DNA of 64,000 nt from Chiloscyllium plagiosum (taxonomy: Eukaryota), in NCBI RefSeq assembly GCF_004010195.1, contig NC_057718.1:87106139-87170138 (forward strand). Reading direction: 5' to 3'. A program made the translations under genes and the position numbers. The notes below the pieces were generated by a model. That model ran no database searches, was not told the DNA's origin, and saw nothing but the letters and a program-made list of their open reading frames with translations. Shown here in pieces: positions 1,746-63,371 of this stretch. Position 1 is the first letter of the stretch. Each line of letters starts with the position of its first letter.

Positions 1746-2479
1746 TGAATAACATGAACAATGGTGAGTCAGTTGGAACGTATAGCGAGATAAGGAGAAA
1801 TTAAATCTTCTACTGTAGGCTTGAGCAACAGATGTGTGAATGAGGGTAACAATGTGCAACCAACATGTAAAAGCATTCTACTAACTATGTCATTGCTTGT
1901 CCCAACATTTGAATTTTATCTATGTGCCACACTGCTGAATGATCACATTACTGAGGAACTGTTTTGTTTCTAATATTGCATGTAAAACTTCATTAAACCT
2001 GTCCCTAGTGGTGTCAGGCATAGAAGCTGTGATCATCCCAGTGGACTGCGTATGCTGTACTGTGTCTGCAAGCCCAGAACTAGTACTAACCTCCAACTGA
2101 CATGGAACCTACCCCTACTATAGAGCTGGCAGCCATAGGCACCCTTATGATGTGGCAAAGATGTAGAGAACCACAATCAATTATCTTCCATGGAATACTG
2201 TGCAGATAGGGGTAGTGGCACTATATTCTGCCCAGATGTGGAGGTTAGAATGCCCTTCAGTACTATACAGTATATCTGCAATGTTAAACTTCTTCACACT
2301 GGAACCAACAGGGACTTAGCACGCCCCTTCAACATCAGATTTTCATGCAAGTCGTGTCTGGACTTCATAATGGTACTGTCCAGACAAATCCTCAGAATCT
2401 CTTTTTCAAATAACTGGAGGATACATTGACACATTGCAATGGATGATGGAATTTTATGAGATCTGCAGCATTGCAAAGA

Positions 2480-3992
2480 CGGGACCTATGTTGTGGAAAG
2501 TAAGGGAGGAAATTGCAAGATTCTGTGCAGAAATATTTGCATCAACTATAACCACAGGTGAGGTGCCTGATGACTGGAAGGTGGCTAATGTTGTACCTTT
2601 GTTTAAGAAAGGCTGTGAGGAGAAACCAGAGACTTACAGACCTGTGAGTCTTACATCGGTTGTGAGTAAATTATTGGAGGTGATTATATAAGGTACGACT
2701 TATGGATATTTGGAGAGGCAAACACTGATTAGGGATAGTCAACATGGTTTTGTGTGAGGAAAATCATATCTCACAATCTTAATTGAGTTTTTTGATGAAG
2801 TTACTGAAAAGATTGATGAGGACAGAGCAGTAGACGTCGTTTACTAGGACTTTAATAAAGCCTTCGACAAGGTTCCTCATGGTAGACTAATTAGTAAAGT
2901 TAGGTCACATGGGATTCAGGATGAGCTTGCCAATTGGATACGTAATTGGCTTAATGGCAGGAGGCAGAGATTGGTGGTGGAGGGTTGTTTTTCGGACTGG
3001 AAGCCTGTCACCAACAGTGTTCTCCAGGGATCGGTTCTGGGACCTCTTTTGTTTGTCATTGATATAATTGGTTTGGATGAGAATATAGCAGGCTTGGTTA
3101 GTAAATTTGCAGACAACACCAAATTTGGTGGCATAGTAGGCAGTGAAGAAGGTTTTCTAAGGGATTTTGATCAAATGGATAAATGGGCTAAAAGATGGCA
3201 GATAGAGTTCAGTCTGGATAAATGCATTTTGGTACAACAAACTAGGGTAGGGCTTATTCAGTTAATGATGGGGCCTTGCGTAGTGTTGTAGAACAGAGGC
3301 ACCTCGGGATGCAGGTACATAATTCTTGCATCACAAAGAGACAGGGTGTTTAAAAAGGCATTCAGCACGCTTGTCTTGATTTTTTAGTCCTTTGAGTACA
3401 GGAGTTAGGAAGTCATGTTAAGGTTGTAAAGGACATTGGTGAGGCCTCTGCTGGAATACAGTGGCCAGTTCTGATCACAGTTATAGGAAGGATATTATTA
3501 AGCCAAAGACGTTCAGAAGAGATTTACCAGGATGCTGCCGGGTTTGGAACGTTTGGGTTATAAAGAAAGGCTGGATAGGCTAGGACTTTATCACTGGAGT
3601 GTAGAAGGTTGAGAAGTGACCTTATAGAAGTTTATAAAATAATGAGGGATATAGATAGAGTTAGTAGTAGTTGTCTTTTCCATAGAACGGGGATTTCGAG
3701 ACGAAGGGGAATATTTTTAAGGTGAGAGGAGAAAGATTTTAAAAAGACATGAGGGGCAAGTTATTTACACAGAGAGTGGTTTGTGTGTGGAATGACCTTC
3801 CTGAAGAATTGGTGGATGTGGGTACAATTACAACATTTAAAATACATTTGGATAGATACATGAATAGGAAAGGTTTGGAGGCTATGATCCAGGAGCCAGC
3901 AGGTGGAACTAGTTTAGTTTGGGATTATGTTCGGCATCGACTGGTTGGACTGAAAGATCTGTTTCCATGCAGTATGACTGTATGACTCTATG
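2480..3992 (+). mobile_element. CR1/HER1-type LINE, 5'-truncated, RT disrupted
   Basis: VPDDWKVANVVPLFKKG..YRPVSLTSVV, QGSVLGPLLF, KFADNTK, FTQRVVCVWNDLP. Ends in TATGACT repeats. Confidence 0.92.
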
Positions 3993-9797: not shown

Positions 9798-9861
9798 GAA
9801 ATTGATCATTTTCCATAACCCAAGTAAATACACATATTCGTTGCAAAAATCATGCTTAAAG
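9798..9861 (+). CDS. ADGB: Androglobin internal exon (64 nt, phase 2-0): KLIIFHNPSKYTYSLQKSCLK
   Basis: ttttcatttgcttccag acceptor, AAG|gtaatc donor. Resembles recalled human NIYIFHKPSSYCLNFQKSEFK. Confidence 0.88.
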
Positions 9862-14814: not shown

Positions 14815-17557
14815 GGACTAGTAGCTTAATATTCCAGGATACAAATGCTACAGGAAGGAAGGAAAGGGGGCAAGAGAAGAGGGGGCGTGGCGTTTTTGAT
14901 AAAGAATAGCATTACAGCTGTACTTAGGGAGGATATTCCCTGAAATACATTCAGGGAAGTTATTTGGGTGGAACTGAGAAATAAGAAAGGAATGATCACC
15001 TTATTGGGATTGTGTTATAGACCCCCTAATAGTCAGCAAGAAATTGAGAAACAAATTTGTAAGGAAATTTCAGCTATCTGTAAGAATGATAGGGTGGTTA
15101 TGGGAGGAGATTTTAACTTTCCAAACATAGACTGGGACTGCCACAGTGTTAAGGGTTTAGATGAAGAGGAATTTGTTAAGTATGTACAAGAAAATTTTCT
15201 GATTCAGTATGTGGATGTACCTACTAGTGAAGGTGCAAAACATGACCTCCTCTTGGGAAATAAGGCAGGGCAGATGATTGAGATGTCAATGGGGGAGCAC
15301 TTTGGGGCCAGCCCCCATAATGCTTTTAGCTTTAAAATAGTGATGGAAAAGGATAGACCAGATCTAAAAGTTGAAGTTCAAAACTGGAGAAAGATCAATT
15401 TTGACGATATTAGGCAAGAACTTTCAAAAGCTGATTGGGGGCAGATATTCGCAGATAACAGGACAGCTGGAAAATGGGAAGTCTTCAGAAATGAGATAAC
15501 GAGAGTCCAAAGGCAGTATATTCCTGTAAGGGTGAAAAGAAAGGCTGGTACATGTAGGGAATACTGGATGACTTAAGAAACTGAGGGTTTGGTTAAGAAA
15601 AAGAAGGAAGCATGTGTCATGTAAAGACAGGATGGATTGAGTGAATCCTTAGAAGAGTATAAAGGCAGTAGGAGTATACTTAAGAGGGAAATCAGGAGGG
15701 CAAAAAGGGGACATGAGATAGCTTTGGAAAATAGAGTTAAGGAGAATCCAAATACATTTAAGACAAAAATGGTAACTAGGGAGAGAATAGGACCCCCTCA
15801 AAGATCAGCAAGGCGGCTTTTGTGTGGAGCCGCAGGAGATGGGGGAGATATTAAATGAGTATTTTGATCAGTGTTTACTGTGGAAAAGGACATGGAAGTT
15901 ATAGAATGTGGGGAAATAAATGGCGATATCTTGAAAAACGTCCATATTACAGAGGAAAAAGTGCTGGATCTCTTGAAACACATAAAGGTGGATAAATCTA
16001 CAGGACCTGATCAGGTGTACCATAGAACTCTGTGGGAAGCTAGGGAAGTGATTGCTGGGCCTCTTGCTGAGATATTTGTATCATCGATAGTCACAGGTGA
16101 GGTGCTGGAAAACGGGAGGTTGGCTAACGTGTTACTACTATTTAAGAAAGATGGTAACGACAAGCCAGGGAACTGTAGACCAGTGAGCTTGATGTCGTTG
16201 GTGGACAAGGGAATCCTGAAGGACAGGATTTACATGTATGTGGAAAGGCAAGGACTGTTAGGGAGAGTCAACATGGCTTTGTGCGTGGGAAATCATGTCT
16301 CACAAACTTGATTGAGTTTTTTGAAGAAGTAACAAAGAGGATTGATGAGAGCAGAGTGGTGGATGTGATCTATATCGACTTCAGTAAGTCTTTCGACAAG
16401 GTTCCCCATGGGAGACTGGTTAGCAAGGTTAGATCTCATGGAATCCAGGGAGAACTAGCCATTTCGATACAGAACCGGCTCAAAGGTAGAAGACAGAGGG
16501 TGGTGGTGGAGGGTTGTTTTTAAGACTGGAGGTTTGTGACCAGTGGAGTGCCACAAGGATCAGTGCTAGGTCCACTACTTTTCGTCATTTCTATAAATGA
16601 TTTGGATGTGAATATAGGAGGTATAGTTAGTAAGTTTGCAGATGACACCAAAATTGGAGGTGTAGTGGATAGCAAAGAAGATTACCTCAGATTACAACAG
16701 ATCTTGATCAGATGGGCCAAATGAGCTGAGGAGTGGCAGATGGAGTTTAATTTAGATAAATACAAGTTGTTGCATTTTGGGAAAGCAAACCTTAGCAGGA
16801 CTTATACACTTAATGGTAACGTTCTAGGGAGTGTTGCTGAACAAAGAGACCTTGGAGTGCAGGTTCATAGCTCCTTGAAAGTAGAGTCACAGGTAGTTAG
16901 GATAGTGAGAAAGGCATTTGGTATACTTTCCTTTATTGGTCAGAGTATTGAGTATAGGAGTTGGGAGGTCATGTTGCGGCTGAACAGGATGTTGGTCAGG
17001 CCACTTTTGGAATATTGCGTGCAATTCTGGTCTCCTTCCTGTCAGAAGGATGTTGTGAAACTTGAGAGGATTCAGGAAAGATTTACAAGGATATTGACAG
17101 GGTTGAAAGATTTGAGCTATAGGGAGAGGTTGAATAGACTGGGGCTGTTTTCCCTGGAGCGTCAGAGACTGAGGGGTGACCCTATAGAGGTTTATAAAAT
17201 CATGAAGGGCATGGATAGGGTAAATAGACAAGGTCTTTTCCCTGGGGTGGAGAGTCCAGAATTAGAGGGCATGGGTTTAAGGTGAGAGGGGAAAGATATA
17301 AAAAAGAGACTTAAGGAGCAACTTTTTCATGCAGAGGGTGGTGCATGTATGGAATGAACTGGCAGAGGAAGTGGTTGAGGCTGGTACAATTGCAACATTT
17401 AAAAGGAATCTGGATGGATATATGAATAGGAAGGGTTTGGAGGGATACGGGCCTAGTACTGGCAGGCGGGACCAGATCAGGTTGGGACATCTGGTCGGCA
17501 TAGACGAGTTGGACTGGAGGGTCTGTCTCTGTGCTGTACATCTCTATGATTCTATGA
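14815..17557 (+). mobile_element. CR1/HER1 LINE (EN+RT, frameshifted) inserted into L1 ORF2
   Basis: YRPPN, MGGDFNFPNIDW, DFSKSFDKVPH, PQGSVLGPLLF, KFADDTK, TCTATGA tail. Removing it rejoins the L1 sequence (..AAAGGA|CCCATACC..). Confidence 0.93.
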
Positions 17558-17940
17558 CCCATACCTATCTAGTATGCACTTCATCCAGTCAAAACGCTGC
17601 AGGATATAAAAAAAGATATGGCCATTCCACCTAATCTAATGCCTTCTCTAATGTACAAGGACGCCACCAACCCTTGAACTGACCATTGCTGGCACACTTG
17701 AATCACGTTATGCAGTCTCCTAACATTATTAGAAGATCTGCAACCTGTTATAAAGCCCACCTGATCCTCCTTAACAAAGAGGGCAACACCCTTTCCAACC
17801 TCAATGCCCAAAGTCTTTGATAACGTTGTAAAATTAGAGTTTAAAAGCGGGATGGGTCTGTAAGAAGCACAGTCTTCCCGGGTATACCCTTTCTCGAGAA
17901 TGGCAGGAGGCAATCCCAACTATATGGATAGTTGTACATG

Positions 17941-18077
17941 GTAAAAACAATGACTGCAGATGCTGGAAACCAGATTCTGGATTAGTGGTGCTGGAAGAGC
18001 ACAGCAGTTCAGGCAGCATCCAAGGAGCTTCGCTGAAGCTGCCTGAACTGCTGTGCTCTTCCAGCACCACTAATCCA
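17941..18077. mobile_element. Fold-back Penelope-like insert (family A variant) in L1 ORF2
   Basis: 15-bp TSD GGATAGTTGTACATG at 17926-17940 and 18078-18092. Perfect 41-bp inverted arms at 17977-18017 and 18038-18078. Confidence 0.75.
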
Positions 18078-21000
18078 GGATAGTTGTACATGTCTAGCAT
18101 CGGTCCTGACAGTATGTTTACCACTTTGAAGTTGCCTCACTGCTTTCTGTAAGTCTTGGGCTGTTAACGGAGCACTAACGAAAGACGTCTGTTCAGCAGG
18201 CATACCAGAAAGATCCAAGTTCCTAAAAAGAGACTCCATCTTATACCATCTGTCCTCACAGCAGTCAGACTGGTAAAGTTCAGAGTAAAATCTCTGACAC
18301 TCCTCATTGATTTTTTTAGCATCGGAATAAAGAGTTCTATTCCCTTCCCTACTAGAAGCAATAGACTGGGAGGCATTCTTCTTCCTGACCAAATATGCTA
18401 AGTTTTTACGCGGCCTATCACCGCGCTCAAACAGCGTCTGCTTCGCAAAGAAAAGTTCCTTCCTTGCTGTATGCATGAGCATGAAGTTTAAAGCAGATCA
18501 GAGAGCTGTGATCCACTGCAGCTTAGTCACCAATAGGTCTACTATAGTATGCCGTCTCAGCTGCCTTCACTCGTGCCTCAAGCAGACACTGCCGCTCTCC
18601 CTTCTGTCACTTCTGGCTGGCAGAGTATGAGATAATTAACCCACTAGCATAGGCCTTAGCTGTCTCCCAAAGAATGGATGGATTACTAGCTGTACCTGAG
18701 TTGGTGGCCAAACAAAGTTTCAAATTCCCTCGAAAAGTGTTCTACAAACTCGCTGTCCCTGAGGATGAAGGGATCCATTTGCCAGTACATTAGCCCATTA
18801 CATCACTCTTAATCTTAACCATTAAATACACAGCTGCATGATCACAGATGACAATATTCCCAATTCGACAGGATACCACCAAATCCTAAAAAGCCACAGG
18901 AATTAAGAAATAATCAATCCTTGTGTGGCATTTATGAGGATTGGAAAAGAATATAAAATCTCTGCCCATAGGGTGTAAACATCTCCGACCGTTTACCAAA
19001 CCCACACATAAATCACCCAACTGCTTAGATTATGAAGAAAGCTTTGGGAAGCCTTTGGGCATTCTGTCTAGCACAAGATCTATCAGGCAATGAAAAGCTG
19101 CCCCCATAATAATATGCTGTGACACCAAGGCCATCAGCTTATCTCATGCATCAGTTAGCAATTTAAGAGGGTAGGCCAGAGGACAGTAGACATTCAAAAT
19201 ACCATATTCCTCACCAAGTATAAGGGCCTTAAGAATAACAAACTGACCATACTCACCTTTAACACAACCTATTAAATTAAATGGGAGACCCTTCCGGATG
19301 AGTATGGCCACTCCTCTGCTCCTAATACTAAAAGACAAGAAAAACACCCGATCAAACCCACCCTGCTGCAACTTCAAGTGTTCCTTGTCACTAAGATGAG
19401 TCTCCTTCAACAGCCCAATGTCGACCCTCTCCTTTCTAAGGTTCAACAACACCTTTTTTCTTTTAACTGGCGAATGAATCCCTCTGATATTCCAGGTGCA
19501 CCGTTTAAGAATGCTGCTAACCACGATCCTTTACAACCCTTGACCTGCCGAGAGGAAGAATTCGTCTAGCAACATGCTGAGCACACTCAAAAGGAGACTC
19601 AGAGTCCATTTACAAAAAACCAAAAAGAAAATAAACTAACTACAAAACACAAAAAGCACTTAATGGGGGACTCTACTTTCTGCTCACAGAAGACACTCAG
19701 ATTTCCCACACACACCTCCATCCCACCCACCCCCCCCCCTTGCAGCTCAAGCCACATCCCAAACCCAAGCAATGGAAGAAACTAAACAAAAGGACATTGT
19801 AAACACAGGTGTAACTGAAACTCTGCCCATCCCCACTATATATCAATACCACTCCAGCTCAGAGAGAGAAAGAAATACCCACCAACAATAACTTCTTTGG
19901 GAAAAGAGTGAAAGTACAAGAAATAAAAGCAAGACAGAAAAAAAATACATTACTGTCCAAGTCCATAAATACATTATTTTAAAGTGTCCAAAAAGTTTTT
20001 GGCTTGCTGCAAGGAATCAAACGACCGCACAGCTTCCTGTTAACTAATATGAAGCACTGCTTCGTATGTCATTCAGTATTGAATACCAAGGTCCTTTAAC
20101 CTTCTCTTAACCTCAAACGATTTCCTCTTATGAATCATTGCCGCAGAAAAGTCCTGGAAAAACATTATCCGAGTTCCCTGACATGTCAGGGCCTATAGAT
20201 CTCTCCCCAAACTTCTAGAAGTTTCCATGACTCTCTCTGCTTGTCCCCATAGCATTGAAATCATATCAGAACCAGGCACTGATCCTGACCGGATCTGCGC
20301 ACCGCAACCTGGTGAGCTCTGTCAACCTTCACCTGGTCCACCTCGGCATCCCAGCCAAGGAATTGCGGCAACCTTTCTTCAAAAAGACCGGCTGATTGCC
20401 CACCTTCTACTCCCTCCAGCAAGCCGATGACCCAGATCTTCTTTCTCCTGCCTCTATTTTCCAGGTCATCGACTTGCTCAGTTAGGGCCCGAACCGGTTC
20501 CTCAAGGGCCTGGATCCGCCCTGCCGAGGTCTCTACATCAGTCTCTGACTGTGGTCCACCGTTCAACCTCTTCAACTTGCTTCCCGGGCCCGTCCAACCC
20601 CTTCTCATGCTTTTGTAGCATGGCCGAGATGGGCTCCAGTCGATTACGAGTCTCTTCCCTCATCTCCCGGATCAGTTGTTGGATCGCTTTGAGTTCCTCC
20701 ATGATGTTCTCCTGCACAGGCATTTCTTTCAATACTGCTGAGGGAGCTGCAGCAGTTTTCCCAGTTGCAGTTTCAGGCCTGCCTGATGTTTTCAGCTAGT
20801 GTCCTGAATGTTGAGAGTTGGCCGTTTACTTCCTCTTAGTCATTCTCACATGCTCCAGAAAGGATTTAAATGATTGTATTACCATTTAGCAATATTTTTT
20901 CCAAAACAAAACTAAGGTGGGGGGTAAAAATATATTACTACCCTGGGTCAGGGTGCAGAGCTCAGCAAGGCTGATCTATTCAGATCGCCATCATCTTGAA

Positions 21001-26557: not shown

Positions 26558-26660
26558 TCCACAGATGATCGAGGACCATACTATCTACATGTGGACCACA
26601 TGAAGCCAGTAGAAATGTTGGTTACTTTCTCTGCATTGGTACGCTGGGATAATATCAGCT
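26558..26660 (+). CDS. ADGB: Androglobin exon (103 nt, phase 0-1; in-frame alternative end at 26696): STDDRGPYYLHVDHMKPVEMLVTFSALVRWDNIS
   Basis: ctag| acceptor. Donor T|gtgaga or AAG|gttagt. Resembles recalled human FSEERVSYYLFVDSLKPIELLVCFSALVRW. Absent from the ORF track. Confidence 0.88.
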
Positions 26661-26859
26661 GTGAGAAGAACCTTAACAAAGGAAACAATGACAAAGGTTA
26701 GTGCTTCATGCATTTTATTTACTGTTATAGAGTTATCAGGGATAAAAGAAAAGTATGCCTACTCTGCTAAACAATTAGATTATGGCCAACCTGCACTTGC
26801 AATTCATTTTTATTGAAAATGAATCAATCACCATTGTGAAATATTTTTAATTGACATAG

Positions 26860-30451: not shown

Positions 30452-31801
30452 TAGAGCAGCCTTGATTATCCGAACAAGATGGGCGAGCACTATTTCGTTC
30501 AGAAAATTGATTATTCGGTTAATTGATTCAATGCTTCTCTCCTCTGGGGTTCAGAGTTTTCTGAAGTTTCCTTTCTCCTTGTTCTGCCTGCCTTGCTCCC
30601 TCTCTCTGTCTCAGGGTTTGTTTCTGAGCAGGCAAACACCAATGTGTAAAGGACCTGCAGCATTGCTGAAGCCTCCTGCCTCTGCTCCCCCTCCCCCCAC
30701 ATCAGTTCAATGGGATCAACACAAGCACTTGCTAAATCTGCTCCCCGTTCAGGAGACTAGGCAGCAGCATGCTGCGCGCGAGCCCCCGCCCCCCCACCGT
30801 CTGCCTCCAACCTGGCTCCCATCTGCACCCCCAACCCCACCACCCATCTNNNNNNNNNNNNNNNNNNNNNNNNNNNNNNNNNNNNNNNNNNNNNNNNNNN
30901 NNNNNNNNNNNNNNNNNNNNNNNNNNNNNNNNNNNNNNNNNNNNNNNNNNNNNNNNNNNNNNNNNNNNNNNNNNNNNNNNNNNNNNNNNNNNNNNNNNNN
31001 NNNNNNNNNNNNNNNNNNNNNNNNNNNNNNNNNNNNNNNNNNNNNNNNNNNNNNNNNNNNNNNNNNNNNNNNNNNNNNNNNNNNNNNNNNNNNNNNNNNN
31101 NNNNNNNNNNNNNNNNNNNNNNNNNNNNNNNNNNNNNNNNNNNNNNNNNNNNNNNNNNNNNNNNNNNNNNNNNNNNNNNNNNNNNNNNNNNNNNNNNNNN
31201 NNNNNNNNNNNNNNNNNNNNNNNNCACCCAGTCTGCCCCCACTCCCACATCCCCGCCCCACCAACCCCAATCAACCCTGTCCCTATCCGCCCCCACCCAC
31301 TGTCCGGCCCCACAATTCCCCCCCGCGCCCCCTGCCCCCCAAGGGGCAGCTGGACTGGACATCAACAGCAAGACTGCTGCTACCTTTGGGGGGGAGGGGG
31401 TGGGAGTGTCAAAATAGCGCACAGACACGCACACACATGCAGCCACACACACAACGTTTTACTGCAACTTTTTGACAAGTTTCACCTTTGCTCTATACAG
31501 GACAATGTTGGAGAGATTATCTGGGGAAGGGAGGTTTAGGGTACACTCCATGGAAAGTGTGGGGAGAGAGATAGGGCGGGTGGTCAGTCATTTGGAGACG
31601 GCGCCTGGGCTCCCATCGGTGTCCAGGACTGTTCTCAGCAGCATTTCAGTAAGCCAAATTCATTTTTAATCGTTGTAAACAAAAGACACAATCAGTATTG
31701 GAAACACCTCTTTGACGTAATGTTTCTATCCGGACCTTGAGATCTTCTTCAGATAATCCGAAATTCGGATAATTGATATTCGGATAATCAAGGTTCCTCT
31801 G
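30452..31801 (-). mobile_element. Tc1/mariner-pogo (Tigger-like) non-autonomous element containing an assembly gap
   Basis: TIRs ..CCTTGATTATCCGAA / TTCGGATAATCAAGGTTCCTCTG, TA on both flanks. Same family as 44254-44836 in opposite orientation. Confidence 0.8.
30850..31224. other. Assembly gap (N run)
   Basis: Run of N bases flanked by C-rich low-complexity sequence. Confidence 0.99.
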
Positions 31802-34056: not shown

Positions 34057-34198
34057 ATAACGTGAAGGAATTCTCAGGCCTTCCGTCAGGCATGCTCATC
34101 GCTGAGTCATACTCTTGGAAGAGTCTTGCTTTGAACCCCCCAATTCTATACATCAGAACTGTGGCTACAAAATCAACCATCTTGGAGCTACCTTGTGG
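34057..34198 (+). CDS. ADGB: Androglobin exon (142 nt, phase 1-2): NVKEFSGLPSGMLIAESYSWKSLALNPPILYIRTVATKSTILELPC
   Basis: ttattatcag| acceptor, GG|gtatgt donor. Resembles recalled human PGLLTAETFSWKSL..IHTYATKATVVRLPVG. Confidence 0.92.
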
Positions 34199-34580
34199 GT
34201 ATGTAGTCATTTTCTATATCAACCAAGGAGACTTTCAAACCAATTCTTGTCCACACATATAAATTGGTTTTAAATAGTTAAAAACCAAATCAAAATCCCA
34301 CCAGAGTGGGGAATGTGCTAAAACCACTCAATCTTCTTGCAAGGATACATACAGAGAGCACACAATCGTGGCAAGAAAGGAACATTGCATTGATTCCAAA
34401 TGCAAAGGTTTGGACCAATTATCGAGTCATAGAGTCAGAGAGATGTACAGCACGTAAACAGACCCTTCGGTCCAACCCGTCCATGCCGACCAGATATCCC
34501 AACCCAATCTAGTCCCACCTGCCAGCACCCGGCCCATATCCCTCCAAACCCTTCCTATTCATATACCCATCCAAATGCCT

Positions 34581-35310
34581 NNNNNNNNNNNNNNNNNNNN
34601 NNNNNNNNNNNNNNNNNNNNNNNNNNNNNNNNNNNNNNNNNNNNNNNNNNNNNNNNNNNNNNNNNNNNNNNNNNNNNNNNNNNNNNNNNNNNNNNNNNNN
34701 NNNNNNNNNNNNNNNNNNNNNNNNNNNNNNNNNNNNNNNNNNNNNNNNNNNNNNNNNNNNNNNNNNNNNNNNNNNNNNNNNNNNNNNNNNNNNNNNNNNN
34801 NNNNNNNNNNNNNNNNNNNNNNNNNNNNNNNNNNNNNNNNNNNNNNNNNNNNNNNNNNNNNNNNNNNNNNNNNNNNNNNNNNNNNNNNNNNNNNNNNNNN
34901 NNNNNNNNNNNNNNNNNNNNNNNNNNNNNNNNNNNNNNNNNNNNNNNNNNNNNNNNNNNNNNNNNNNNNNNNNNNNNNNNNNNNNNNNNNNNNNNNNNNN
35001 NNNNNNNNNNNNNNNNNNNNNNNNNNNNNNNNNNNNNNNNNNNNNNNNNNNNNNNNNNNNNNNNNNNNNNNNNNNNNNNNNNNNNNNNNNNNNNNNNNNN
35101 NNNNNNNNNNNNNNNNNNNNNNNNNNNNNNNNNNNNNNNNNNNNNNNNNNNNNNNNNNNNNNNNNNNNNNNNNNNNNNNNNNNNNNNNNNNNNNNNNNNN
35201 NNNNNNNNNNNNNNNNNNNNNNNNNNNNNNNNNNNNNNNNNNNNNNNNNNNNNNNNNNNNNNNNNNNNNNNNNNNNNNNNNNNNNNNNNNNNNNNNNNNN
35301 NNNNNNNNNN
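34581..35310. other. Assembly gap (N run)
   Basis: Run of N bases within the CR1. Confidence 0.99.
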
Positions 35311-35549
35311 ACCCCAACCTATTCAGCCTCTCCCTATAGCTCAAATCCTCCAACCCTGGCAACATCCTTGTAAATCTTTTCTGAATCCTTTCAAGTTTCA
35401 CAGCATCCTTCCTGTAGACGGGAGAACAGAACTGCACACAATATTCCAAACGTGGCCTAACCAATGTCCTGTACAGCCACAACATGACCTCCCAACTCCT
35501 ATACGCTCTGACCAATAAAGGCAAGCATTTCAAACACCTTCTTTGCTAT

Positions 35550-36346
35550 TGTTATGACACGGAGGCTAACCCCTCTGTTAATTAAACCAAACACCCAGAA
35601 AAGCTCACCTCACCTCATAATCTGTTAAAATATGGGTGACAGAGAACTCCCAAATTCCACTATTTAAAGAAAATAACATCAATTTATTTTCCTAACTCTA
35701 AAAGCGAACATTAAACAACAACTATTCACAACTCTAATCCCCCTTTCTTTTTATTGCTTCCAATCTACCCTAACTCTACAATAATATGCTGTTCCAATAT
35801 GACACTTACTAAAACTACATCCATTTAATTTCAAAGTCATAAGACCGCTGACTTCTCCCGTATCTTCACACTTCCAGATGAGGATCTCCCTGGATCGTCT
35901 TCTTTTTACTGAGAATGTTTCACATGAAAAGATATCTTTAAAAGAGGGTGTTTTCTAATCTCTTTGAGAGCAAGATATTCACTCTCCATGAGTTTTTCTC
36001 TCTCTACGATAGCTGCTCTCTGACTATTTTTCAAAATGTCTACATTTTACACTCCCTCATCATCAGATCCATTCATTGCTTTGATGTTGGCAAAACAATA
36101 AATTCAAACATAATTGGGTTTTAGTATCCTGGGGCATAATTTAAACTGATGGGTTAAATTTGAATTGTTTTCAAAACAGCAACCAAAATTCAAGTATCAT
36201 TTCACAGCCAAATGTTATATATTTTCAATTTTCCAGTACACTCTGGGACTGCCATCTTGTCATACATACAGGTACTTGTAATCTCTCAGCTCATAACGCA
36301 TTCTCTCTCACTTAAAGGTATAGTGCATACTTTCAACTTCATATCA
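35550..36346. mobile_element. Solo-LTR-like insertion (797 bp) in the CR1
   Basis: TGTTATGA...TCATATCA termini (7/8 inverted match). CR1 sequence resumes directly on both sides. Confidence 0.7.
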
Positions 36347-38824
36347 CTTCCTATTTACCTGTGACTCCACTTTCAAGGATCTATGAACCTGCACTCCAAG
36401 GTTTCTTTGTTCAGTACCACTCCCCAGGACCTTGCCACTAAATGTATAAGTCCTGCCCTGATTTGCCTTTCCAAAATGCAGCACCTCACATTTATCTAAA
36501 TTAAACTCCATCTGCCACACCTCGGCCCATTGGCCCATTTGATCAAGATCCCGTTGTATTCGGAGGTAATCTTCTTTGCTGTCCACTACACCTCCAATTT
36601 TGGTGTCACCTTCAAACTTACTAACTATACCTCCTATGTTCACATCCAAATAATTTATATAAATGACAAAAATCAGTGGACCCAGCACCGATCCTTGTAG
36701 CACACCACTGATCACAGACCTCCAGTCTGAAAGGCAACCTTCCACCACCCTCTGTCTCCTACCTTCAAGCCAGGTCTGTATCCAGATGGCTCGGTCTCCC
36801 AGTATTCCATGAGATCTAATCTTGCTAACTAGTCTCCCATGAGGAACTTTGTCGGACATGCTATATCATCCAGGTCCTGCTGCAAAATACTTGTTTAGTA
36901 TCTCCCCCATCTCCTGTGGTTCAACATGTAGGCTGCCCTGCTGAGCTTTGAGGGACCCTATTCTCTTCTTCATTCCCCTTTTTTTCCCTTAACATACTTC
37001 TAAAATCCCTTTGGATTCTCCTTAACCCTGTTTGCCAAACTATGTCCCCTTTTTGCCCTCCTGATTTCCCTCTTAAGTATACTTCTACTGCATTTATACT
37101 TTTTTAAGGATTGACTTGATCTCTGCTATATATAGCTTACATATGCTTCCTTCTTATTCTTGACCGAAACCTCAACTTCTCTAGTCATCCATCATTCCCG
37201 ACAACTACCAGCATTGCCTTTCACCCTAACAGAAACGTACTGTCTCTGGACTCTCCTGATCTCATTTTTGAAGGCTTCCCATTTTCCAGCTGTCCCTTTA
37301 CCTGTGGACATCCATCCCCAATCAACTTTTGAAAGTTCTTGTATAATACCATCAAAATTGGCCTTTCTCCAATTTAGAACTTCAACTTTTAGATCCAGTC
37401 TATCTATCCTTTTCCATCACAGTTTTAAAACTAATAGAATTATGGTTGCTGGCCTCAAAGTGCTCCCCTACTGACAAACCTCACCAAATTATCTATTATT
37501 GGATACTCACCTCAGGACGTTGAAACTTGAATAATTTTTTTATATATCAATGCATTAAAAACCCTTGTAATTTGTAACTTATTTCCTCCCCTAGCCAGTC
37601 CTCATTAATTTCATAAATGTTTAGGTATGTTAATGCAGTAGGGATGCATTTCACCCTCATTTTCAATATTTTATCAATATTTCTTATCTTTGATTTCATC
37701 GTAAAAGTTTCTGCTTTCAGAAATTGAATCTGAAAACCAGGGTTTGAGGAATGCTCTTTGGTCTACTTCAGTAAGGGATAAGAATAAAAATGAAAAAGAG
37801 AGAGAGATAAATCAAACAATACCGAAGGCATCATAATGTCATTTCAACCCATACCAGCCTGTCTCTTCATGAAAGTGTGTTGACCTCAGGAGTGCTACAC
37901 AGGATAACATTATAGGCAGGTCAGAGTGTGGGGTTTGTCATCTGAAAATGCTCTGTCACTCGCCAGTCATGCCTTCCTAAGATCGTCTTGTTTCCAGGTT
38001 TGAGAGACAGTATTTCTGCACCTACTTCCATGACTTTTTCCGTCCAACTTGTTTGATTGGAGAAGTGTCCTCTTCCACACTTATCGAGAAAACGAATCTC
38101 AGTGCAGCCCCTCAGATTTCACAGAAGGTCCAGCAGGTAAAAGTGGGGAACTGAAAGAGCAGCCTTCCATATATGTCCTTTCTCTTCCTACAATTCATCA
38201 GCCTCAAACCTCTAAATGGCTTGAAAGTCTCTTAACCTAGCAATCCTTCATTTGACAATGGATATGTCATTCAGTGTGCCCTACTAATTGTCAGGGAAAT
38301 TGGATATTGGTATTAACACCATTGCTCCAGGAAAAGACTTCAGCAAAACATGCCTTCCAGGGAATTGGTTGCACAGCCTGAAAATGGTTCTTTCATTCCA
38401 GAAGGGAGTAAATCCATACAATTTCAGTTAAAGGCTTTCTATAGGTCATTCCTTAGAAATCATCACATAGTTGCCCAGAGAGGAAAACATTTGCTCCTGT
38501 ATTTGTACAGTACTGAAGAAGTGACCGGGGAAGACTTACAGGAAGCTTAACACACCAGAAGAACTTTATTATCTAAAAAAAATTCAAAGTAGTCCAGAAA
38601 TTATTTAACTGAGCTCAACTTTGCATTTTTGTTCTTTCTTCAAATTGCTGCTTGAGTCCTGCAAGACTCCAGCAATCCTAAGCACCTAGTTATTCAGGCA
38701 AAATTACACTTTTTAACTGCATGCCATTACATATTAAATAAGTGCAGGATATTCTGCCCTCATTTACTTATTATTCTTTAATGCATCTCAACCCATTTTC
38801 AAAGGAGTTCTCTTGCCTTTTGTC

Positions 38825-45503: not shown

Positions 45504-45618
45504 GCGCCATGTGATTCGGTTTACTGCCACTTCTCCTCTTGGACACAATATCAACATAAGTAGTACAGTGCCATTTATCTTTGGTGATGAAGATACGGTT
45601 TTAGTACACCTTAGCAAG
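45504..45618 (+). CDS. ADGB: Androglobin exon (115 nt, phase 2-0): RHVIRFTATSPLGHNINISSTVPFIFGDEDTVLVHLSK
   Basis: tttcccttccag| acceptor, AAG|gtatgt donor. Resembles recalled human RHMLLFNAYSPVGHSIHICSMVSFVIGDE. Confidence 0.93.
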
Positions 45619-47532: not shown

Positions 47533-47875
47533 ATGGTCTTATCAGCAACCAGTCACAAAAGTACCTAGACAATTGGCAGCCAGTCAGACAAGTAGTTAGA
47601 CTACTTGCAGACAATCGACCAAATACTGAGGCAGCCAGTTGTACAAGAATGAGTATGTGTACCAGATCATTTTATCCTGGATATTTCTTGAGTGGTTAAA
47701 TGTAGACTGCAATTTCTTAGGCTGTCTATATTCACCTTCTGTACATATTTTGAGAGTATATAGATCTGGCCTTCATGTAAACTATTATGAAGGCAAATCA
47801 AAATATATTATAAAATCTTAGATATGAAATATTGCAGCACAAAGCTTGATTCTCCTGTCTTTCATACATCTACAG

Positions 47876-48043
47876 GATAGCCTGCGATTTATGCAGCATG
47901 CTACCCGCATTATTAAAGCAATTGAAAATGCCATATGTAACTTCAATGATGAGCAAGAGCATCGCAAAACTTCACTGGAACTTCAACATTGTCATTTTCC
48001 ATTCCCATTTGACGATGCTAGTCTGGCTGAGGAGCAAACTAAG
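47876..48043 (+). CDS. ADGB: Androglobin exon (168 nt, phase 0-0), globin E-F helices: DSLRFMQHATRIIKAIENAICNFNDEQEHRKTSLELQHCHFPFPFDDASLAEEQTK
   Basis: ctacag| acceptor, AAG|gtgaat donor. Gap-free 56-aa match to recalled human ESCRFTEQSLLIMKAIGNVIANF..LQTAHYPVPF. Confidence 0.93.
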
Positions 48044-48582
48044 GTGAATTTATTGAAGGTTCAAGATTAGAATTTCTGAAAAAACTAGAAAACGCTTTTG
48101 TAACTGCATCTACACTTAAGTGTTTGCTTTCTTCTGATCAATTTAAAACATTATTTTCTTCCTATTTTAAAATGTTTCTGAGCAAGGTTTTCCCACTTTA
48201 AATGGATAACCACAATTGTTAAATTAATGCCATTAAATCTAGTTTTACCCATTTTTGCTGTTCTGTACTTTAAATAAGAAGTGTTATAAATCACATGCAT
48301 GCATCAAATGCAACAAATGCAGTATTCACTGAGGTTCATTCTCAAAACTATTTGAAAATTTCCTTTTGCTATTATTTTGCACCTCTTTTTAAAATCTTTT
48401 GTGGATTCCATCACTGTCCAGTATGACATATTCTTATCTCTCCCTTTCTTCTTTTAAAAGGAGTTCTTCTGGTTACCAGTTCAGGACTTACAGAAATAGT
48501 TTTTCTTCATTCATATGCAGACGTGCTGGTGTAGTAGTCAGGTCACTACACTAGTAATACAAAGCCCCAAGCTGATAGTGAA

Positions 48583-55360: not shown

Positions 55361-55499
55361 GTCTTCAACACTGCTGTTTACGCCACCGTTGCACACGCCC
55401 TTGATGCTTGCCCAAGTACTGAAGACTATTTTGCTCTTAGAACACTCTTAGTTGATAGCTCTCCAAAGCAGCTTAGGATCGAAGAGAGATCTTGCATAA
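55361..55499 (+). CDS. ADGB: Androglobin exon (139 nt, phase 0-1), globin G-H region: VFNTAVYATVAHALDACPSTEDYFALRTLLVDSSPKQLRIEERSCI
   Basis: Long pyrimidine tract..ctag| acceptor, A|gtgagt donor. VF...FALRTLLVD resembles recalled human VF...FAFRAMVLD. Phase is consistent with both neighbours. Confidence 0.87.
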
Positions 55500-58845: not shown

Positions 58846-58977
58846 GTTCTGTTTCTGAAGTGCCTGAATCATGGAAAGAGAGGACCCCAACTAAACAGGA
58901 AGATGTAGCTGCCAGCAGAATACAGACTTGGTGGAGAGGTCTGGTCATTGGTGAACTCAGGTTTGCAAGCAAGATAG
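58846..58977 (+). CDS. ADGB: Androglobin IQ-motif exon (132 nt, phase 1-1): SVSEVPESWKERTPTKQEDVAASRIQTWWRGLVIGELRFASKI
   Basis: ttttaataag| acceptor (in-frame alternative at 58861), G|gtatgg donor. AASRIQTWWRG resembles recalled human AAAIKIQAMWRG. Confidence 0.9.
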
Positions 58978-63277: not shown

Positions 63278-63371
63278 GGTCAAAACAACACAATTATGTC
63301 AAAACTATCCTGCAGGAAATTTGGAATTTACTGGAATCAGACGTAGAGAATAATGCCTCGTACTTACTTAG
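63278..63371 (+). CDS. ADGB: Androglobin exon (94 nt, phase 1-2), globin A-B helices: SKQHNYVKTILQEIWNLLESDVENNASYLLR
   Basis: atacag| acceptor, AG|gtatga donor. Resembles recalled human TKENISVADTLQKVWAVLEMNLEQYAVSLLR. Confidence 0.9.

Follow-up and report, generated by a model that had tools for sequence, protein, structure and literature searches.

The question raised by this locus is whether the androglobin (ADGB) of the bamboo shark Chiloscyllium plagiosum carries a histidine at the distal E7 position of its globin domain and, if so, what this residue may mean for heme chemistry. Androglobin is a sperm-and-cilia globin. The window analysed here is the whole stretch of 64,000 nucleotides, and all positions below are numbered within it. 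A phase-0 exon of 168 bases was found at 47876-48043 of the plus strand, flanked by AG (47874-75) and GT (48044-45), and encodes a stop-free peptide of 56 amino acids that begins DSLRFMQHATRI and includes LQHCHFP. By database search, this peptide was identical (100%, E 1.2e-28) to residues 951-1006 of P0002, a Chiloscyllium plagiosum protein named androglobin. The codons CAG (47894-96), CAT (47897-99) and CAT (47993-95) were read in this exon. Thus, translation and coordinates agreed with the initial annotation on the exon and both of its CAT codons, and the androglobin identity it proposed was confirmed by the match to P0002 and by the Androglobin Pfam domains of that protein. PF22068, PF22069 and PF22070 (Androglobin domains II, IV and V) were all above cut-off on P0002, with domain II encoded within the window, as was the calpain-like domain PF00648 at residues 288-391, which falls outside the window and was taken from the identical database protein.

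Eight exons with AG/GT borders, all on the plus strand and extending from 9798 to 63371, reproduced residues 798-1128 of P0002 without mismatch (330 amino acids). The exon at 9798..9861 encodes residues ~798-818, those at 26558..26696 (residues ~819-865) and 34057..34198 (residues ~865-912) encode parts of domain II, and that at 45504..45618 (residues ~912-950) encodes the end of domain II together with a short helix that precedes helix E. The exon at 47876..48043 covers the E and F helices of the globin together with the FG region, and is followed by exons for helices G and H (55361..55499, residues 1007-1053), the IQ motif (58846..58977, residues ~1053-1097) and the predicted permuted helices A and B (63278..63371, residues ~1097-1128). 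We take Leu1127 (CTT, 63367-69) to be B10, a label that follows general globin numbering; helix C and CD1 (Tyr1141) fall past the window end. The motif IQxxWRG in exon 58846-58977 is a predicted calmodulin-binding IQ motif, with weak profile matches to IQ proteins (E 0.3 and 0.57). Taken together, the eight-exon match and the Pfam domains of P0002 revealed that the window carries the middle of an intact androglobin gene, the only one of the bamboo shark. This middle part includes domain II and helices E-H, followed by the IQ motif and the predicted permuted helices A-B. Its introns hold two assembly gaps (N runs at 30850-31224 and 34581-35310) across which no exon was lost compared to P0002, decayed fragments of LINE-type endonuclease and reverse transcriptase (2371-3982, 14944-17631 (+), 34512-37416 (-) and 17837-20795 (-)), and a short interspersed repeat in numerous copies.

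The register of the heme pocket was assigned by reference to human ADGB, for which the available part of PMC11077535 numbers Glu785, Cys787, Gln792 (E7) and His824 (F8). These residues were found to map at the same offsets to Asp951, Leu953, His958 and His990 of the shark protein, and bat and elephant ADGB aligned gaplessly to the shark exon from its start through F8. Template positions of the myoglobin fold (E4, E8, E11, E12, E15, E18 and E19, as given in the accessible text of PMC4527676) were compared at 11 offsets in 119 sequences, the Mustelus row being left out. By this approach, setting E7 at residue 958 gave a mean hydropathy of 3.53, whereas residue 957 gave 0.08 and none of the remaining 9 offsets exceeded 2.09. 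The residue pair 957-958 was Gln-Gln in rays and Callorhinchus, mostly Glu-Gln in bony vertebrates and Arg-His in Mustelus, column patterns that make the preceding glutamine E6. In addition, a profile of 10 ADGB fragments could be aligned to PDB 4u8u chain C along 61 columns with no gap. In this match, which is weak (E 0.53) but independent, His68 of the chain falls in the Gln/His column and His100 in that of F8. His68 is presumably E7 of this chain, as read from the globin motif.

Structural modelling was consistent with this register. The AlphaFold2 model used here represents the tunicate homolog P0139 rather than the shark protein; its mean pLDDT was 84.6, mostly above 90 in the globin helices. 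It displayed the expected helix order: helix E (114-132) starts right after residue 113, the near-invariant serine that precedes the E7 site by six residues, and helix F ends with the F8 histidine. Matches to globins by sequence were weak (Pfam Globin at E 0.016, below cut-off; PDB at E 0.53 and 1.0), the exon alone gave five weak matches to PDB sequences, all non-globin, and fold searches with the P0139 model gave no globin among the matches listed, which were filled by the beta-sandwich part. No ADGB globin domain was detected in the PDB by sequence search; thus, the E7 assignment rests on alignment and models, for the human protein as well. On these grounds, His958 is read as E7 and His990 as F8. 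The placement of the shark histidine on human Gln792, with His990 as F8, which had been proposed from the sequence at the outset, is upheld by the equal offsets, gapless alignment and template fit, while the alternative that the glutamine at 47894-47896 is E7 fails by column comparison and template fit.

The surrounding positions were tallied in a vertebrate set of 120 of the 176 homologs found (all jawed vertebrates, bird-heavy and unselected). Helix E starts at Ser952 (E1, 47879..47881; Ser in 119/120) and continues through Phe955 (E4, 47888..47890; Phe in 119/120), Gln957 (E6, 47894..47896; Glu in 89/120), His958 (E7, 47897..47899), Arg961 (E10, 47906..47908) and Ile962 (E11, 47909..47911; Ile in 117/120), and the proximal His990 (47993..47995; His in 109/120) is placed 32 residues past E7. 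A basic residue (Arg or His) was found at E10 in all 8 galeomorph sharks compared to none of the 10 other chondrichthyans.

The CAT codon of His958 was also examined in sequencing data. The exon stretch was contained, wholly or partly, in 20 of the 24 sequencing runs listed, and contigs from the four runs compared had no listed difference at 47897-99. The contig from run X3 (same organism, from a sample not flagged as a possible source) spans 47805-48250 with no differences, and that from X14 (another organism) has 13 differences, none of which is at the codon. A contig of 4660 letters from X12 (a third organism) fits 47874 to 48045, and none of the four listed of its six differences is at the codon. 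Its loose ends match the 3' end of 45504..45618 upstream and the 5' end of 55361..55499 downstream; since it runs on into the letters of the neighbouring exons, X12 is read as having a spliced form of the gene. The contig from X11, which begins a single base ahead of the codon, counts for little. An RNA origin of X11 and X12 is a guess, and no run recorded as RNA contains the exon. With the codon unchanged in 4/4 runs and the same histidine in six other shark species, an assembly error at His958 is excluded in practice. An artefact in the wider sense, whether an erroneous CAT codon or a true E7 at Gln957, is highly improbable: it draws on a PDB sequence search that gave no solved ADGB globin structure and on the glutamine at the adjoining position 957 in sharks and rays, but it is opposed by the histidine in seven shark species, by the unchanged codon, by the hydrophobic template fit that favours 958, and by the Gln-Gln of rays and Callorhinchus, the Glu-Gln of bony vertebrates and the Arg of Mustelus at 957, which identify the second position as the variable one.

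Among the 120 vertebrate ADGBs, E7 was found to be Gln in 105, His in 8, Lys in 4, and Arg, Thr and Leu in one each, while F8 was His in 109, Tyr in 4, Leu in 4, and Val, Ile and a gap in one each. The eight sequences with His at E7, all of which retain His at F8, were from two Chiloscyllium, Rhincodon, Stegostoma, two Scyliorhinus, Mustelus and the cuckoo Phaenicophaeus; Gln is found in Ceuthmochares and Crotophaga, which are related to this cuckoo. Histidine was thus fixed at E7 in 7/7 sampled orectolobiform and carcharhiniform sharks (carpet, cat and hound sharks). A search for shorter homologs, aimed at lamniform and other sharks, yielded no passing sequence among 187 candidates, such that the sampled sharks include no Lamniformes. 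A 59-row tree, from which the globin columns had been left out, placed these seven His/His sharks in one clade (support 97) with Heterodontus (Arg E7/Tyr F8) as sister, and Callorhinchus and all seven batoids in the tree were Gln/His. Heptranchias was Gln/Tyr, and Pristiophorus had Lys at E7 and a deletion at F8. Based on this tree, the E7 histidine would have arisen once from glutamine, by a single-base change (CAR to CAY) placed either on the stem shared by Orectolobiformes and Carcharhiniformes or just below it. Both trees of this work were made with FastTree; the 59-row tree was hand-picked and enriched for variant sequences, such that conservation ranks were taken from the 120 set instead, and its deep branches, on which the ancestral metazoan state of E7 depends, carry long-branch warnings. 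The proximal histidine is absent from three shark ADGBs (P0008 of Heterodontus, P0010 of Heptranchias and P0011 of Pristiophorus) and is also missing in several frogs, birds, gar, teleosts and lamprey. The database model of the Mustelus protein P0009 has a long insertion after residue 822, past the E-F exon, possibly a mis-annotated extra exon.

More distant homologs were drawn from 393 representatives at 50% identity, of which 150 were listed, 148 were new, 91 were aligned and 73 had a filled E-F region, with 18 dropped as fragments or poorly filled rows. Among the 73, E7 was Gln in 30, His in 9, Asn in 5 and one of twelve other residues in the remainder, with Asn in molluscs and Thr or Val in tunicates; F8 was His in 35 and Tyr in 17 (non-His in 38/73), and seven sequences were His/His. 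Those named with His at E7 were the acorn worm Glandiceps, two proteins labelled Mylnosiga fluctuans (a choanoflagellate) and lamprey (F8 Gly), as well as Nezara (F8 Leu), whose alignment is less certain. Changes between His and non-His at E7 numbered six among the 59 tree rows. Histidine at E7, as read from these alignments, is a recurrent minority state across androglobins. The possibility that it was already common and documented proved partly right: it is a minority state (8/120 and 9/73) yet not exceptional, with Gln attributed to 'most' metazoan Adgbs in the accessible portion of PMC7457136. Likewise, the description of androglobins by Gln-E7 and His-F8 holds in that glutamine is typical but not as a universal rule, since E7 and F8 are both variable. 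Four environmental ADGB homologs (P0181, P0185, P0200 and P0204) were His/His, with an E7-F8 spacing of 29 in the three measured (P0185, P0200 and P0204). Three divergent ADGB-like proteins labelled Mylnosiga fluctuans, P0196, P0203 and P0251, were His/His, His/His and Gln/His, respectively, and may be paralogs or come from a mixed transcriptome; ADGB is described as mostly single-copy.

The heme ligands were compared to the rest of the fold. On the 120-sequence tree, E7 changed 8 times and F8 10 times, compared to 0-2 changes at B10, E4, F4, E11 and the FG proline, and 36 and 46 of the 140 globin columns changed less than E7 and F8, respectively. Pocket positions E4, E11 and B10 and an aromatic CD1 (Tyr1141 in P0002; Phe in 71 and Tyr in 49 of the 120) were nearly invariant. 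Because E7 varied and F8 histidine was absent in 11/120 (including Heterodontus, Heptranchias, gar, Xenopus and several birds), the heme ligands appear from these alignments to be less constrained than the globin fold. In the seven His/His sharks, 29/56 exon positions were invariant, and His958 was one of eight clade-fixed derived residues among the 140 globin columns; fixation of His958 alone thus shows no special selection. The cysteines of the disulfide proposed for human ADGB are replaced in the bamboo shark by Leu953 (47882-47884) and Phe1143 (past the window). Both were missing without exception in 18/18 elasmobranchs, and both were present in only 11/120 sequences. Bat, elephant and platypus are without the first cysteine of the human Cys787-Cys978 pair. 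Features described for human ADGB (Gln E7, the CD disulfide and even His F8) are thus not general to the androglobin family.

As to heme chemistry, the most likely state of the shark domain is a reversible bis-His heme of the kind known from neuroglobin and cytoglobin, as a tolerated variant, a reading that we hold with moderate confidence by analogy and from the sequence. According to the available text of the human studies, the recombinant human domain binds heme and gives six-coordinate ferrous spectra (PMC11077535; PMC11665612). Its complexes with NO are five-coordinate, its rate of nitrite reduction is 25 per molar per second, and its autoxidation proceeds at no less than 2.6 per second (PMC11077535). 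The protein used was His-tagged and re-solubilised with SDS, and its sixth ligand was assumed to be Gln but never directly identified ('the other not identified', PMC11077535). Such low-spin, six-coordinate-type spectra with Gln at E7 would suggest that the distal side closes on the iron. The HisE7Gln variant of neuroglobin is five-coordinate (PMC8699588, in the part seen), which makes His the stronger sixth ligand. In the shark, the heme would be held between His990 and His958 in a reversible bis-His pocket, such that NO, CO, O2 and nitrite would first have to displace His958, ligand entry would be slower, and nitrite reductase activity would probably be below that of human ADGB. A redox switch via the human-type CD disulfide would be absent because both cysteines are missing. 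His958 would be a tolerated variant at a loosely constrained site and not a new function, and ciliary and calmodulin roles would probably be independent of it; in the accessible text of PMC9249397 and PMC13696810, E7 and F8 mutants were unaltered in calmodulin binding and in their localisation to the centrosome. For shark ADGBs, neither a spectrum nor a structure with bound heme was found. His-E7 with Leu-B10 occurs in five- and six-coordinate globins alike, so the sequence cannot decide coordination.

A possible but rather unlikely alternative is that the globin domain is a structural or calmodulin-presenting module with little or no heme in cilia, to which His958 would be neutral. The frequent non-histidine residues at F8 (11/120 vertebrate and 38/73 distant sequences) suggest this, as does His958 being only one of eight clade-fixed derived residues; the partial texts available further describe degenerate globin domains in insect ADGBs (PMC7457136), late acquisition of the domain by an ancestral ADGB that was without it (PMC13331133) and tested cell functions that are heme-independent (PMC9249397; PMC13696810). 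By contrast, F8 is His in 109/120 and in all eight vertebrate His-E7 sequences, the pocket residues E4, E11, B10 and aromatic CD1 are nearly invariant, and the recombinant human domain takes up heme and gases (PMC11077535, as far as accessible). We likewise consider unlikely a five-coordinate, myoglobin-like site in which His958 would hydrogen-bond O2, making the oxy form more stable and allowing the domain to act as an NO dioxygenase. Although His-E7, Arg-E10, Ile-E11, Leu-B10 and Pro C2 (B10 and C2 by general globin numbering) make a more classical pocket than that of human ADGB, and the best sequence match among globins is an extracellular haemoglobin chain (4u8u chain C), the E7-F8 spacing of 32 is that of neuroglobin and not the 29 of myoglobin, and six-coordination is already seen in the human domain, whose autoxidation rate is at least 2.6 per second (PMC11077535, available part).

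An improbable extension of the bis-His reading is that galeoid sharks regained a true bis-His globin in their ciliary androglobin, with His-E7/Arg-E10 as a selected return to the His/His state of choanoflagellate-labelled and hemichordate ADGBs that would alter NO or redox signalling in sperm and cilia. The shark lineage is reported in the accessible main text of PMC13023373 to have lost neuroglobin and, mostly, cytoglobin. Rays are also without neuroglobin and cytoglobin yet keep Gln, and globin X is retained in sharks, both of which speak against a selected return; compensation for the lost globins was rejected as the main explanation, as rays lost them too and keep Gln. A different O2/NO chemistry in shark ADGB, as proposed by the initial annotation, is plausible from the sequence but is weakened because both heme ligands have been repeatedly lost, neighbouring shark lineages included.

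Among the titles, abstract openings and passages covered in the androglobin literature, no report of His-E7 in shark ADGB was found; the 2012 discovery paper and published alignments may nevertheless include androglobins with His at E7. The main text of a 2026 shark globin survey (PMC13023373), in the part available, had no 'distal' or 'histidine', a motif search of the accessible supplements of PMC13023373 and PMC13331133 gave no ADGB sequence, and the portions seen of PMC7475203, PMC7549130, PMC10650076 and PMC4524481 had nothing on the E7 site. The word 'most' applied to metazoan Adgbs with Gln (PMC7457136, partial text) implies that exceptions were already known. Overall, the gene identity, register and codon of the earlier interpretation stood. 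Because the site varies in many other animals, the shark E7 histidine is a modest point variant of a known gene and not a new system, and as such is given moderate weight. The variant bears on what androglobin's sixth heme ligand is and on whether heme matters to its ciliary role. Sharks and their relatives provide a series on one background, i.e., His/His (bamboo, cat and hound sharks), Gln/His (rays and chimaera), Gln/Tyr (sevengill) and Arg/Tyr (horn shark), and a comparison of its members would show directly whether E7 is rightly assigned and whether heme is required.

Compared to known systems, the shark protein is closest in layout to human ADGB, with which it shares the calpain-like and Androglobin II, IV and V domains, a probable permuted helix order with its IQ insert, His at F8, an E7-F8 spacing of 32 and Tyr at the revised CD1 (human Tyr976 by the alignment of Reeder et al. 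2024, PMC11077535, as available). It differs in that E7 is His and not Gln, E10 is Arg, the position equivalent to C2 is Pro, and Cys787 and Cys978 are replaced by Leu and Phe, respectively, which leaves no CD disulfide. With neuroglobin and cytoglobin it shares His at E7 and F8, 32 apart as in neuroglobin (His64/His96; PMC7034838, part seen), and its pocket, if loaded with heme, probably works alike. By contrast, neuroglobin and cytoglobin are single-domain and unpermuted, have Phe at CD1 and their own regulatory cysteines, and have bis-His ligation as a measured property that is a prediction for the shark protein, which belongs to neither family. Other androglobins with His at E7 (Phaenicophaeus, Glandiceps, lamprey and the Mylnosiga fluctuans-labelled proteins) have it in the same column; the cuckoo, acorn worm and choanoflagellate-labelled pair keep His at F8, and lamprey is without it. 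These androglobins occupy separate places in the tree, and the deep homologs have a spacing of 29-30. Chlamydomonas FAP42 of the central apparatus C1 (PDB 7n6g) was the only PDB sequence match to the full protein at E up to 0.001. Among the structural matches listed, it also ranked first against the ADGB segment that had been folded (Z 14.5, rmsd 3.5, 233 aligned), with its sequence matches on the calpain and beta-sandwich parts and not on the heme helices.
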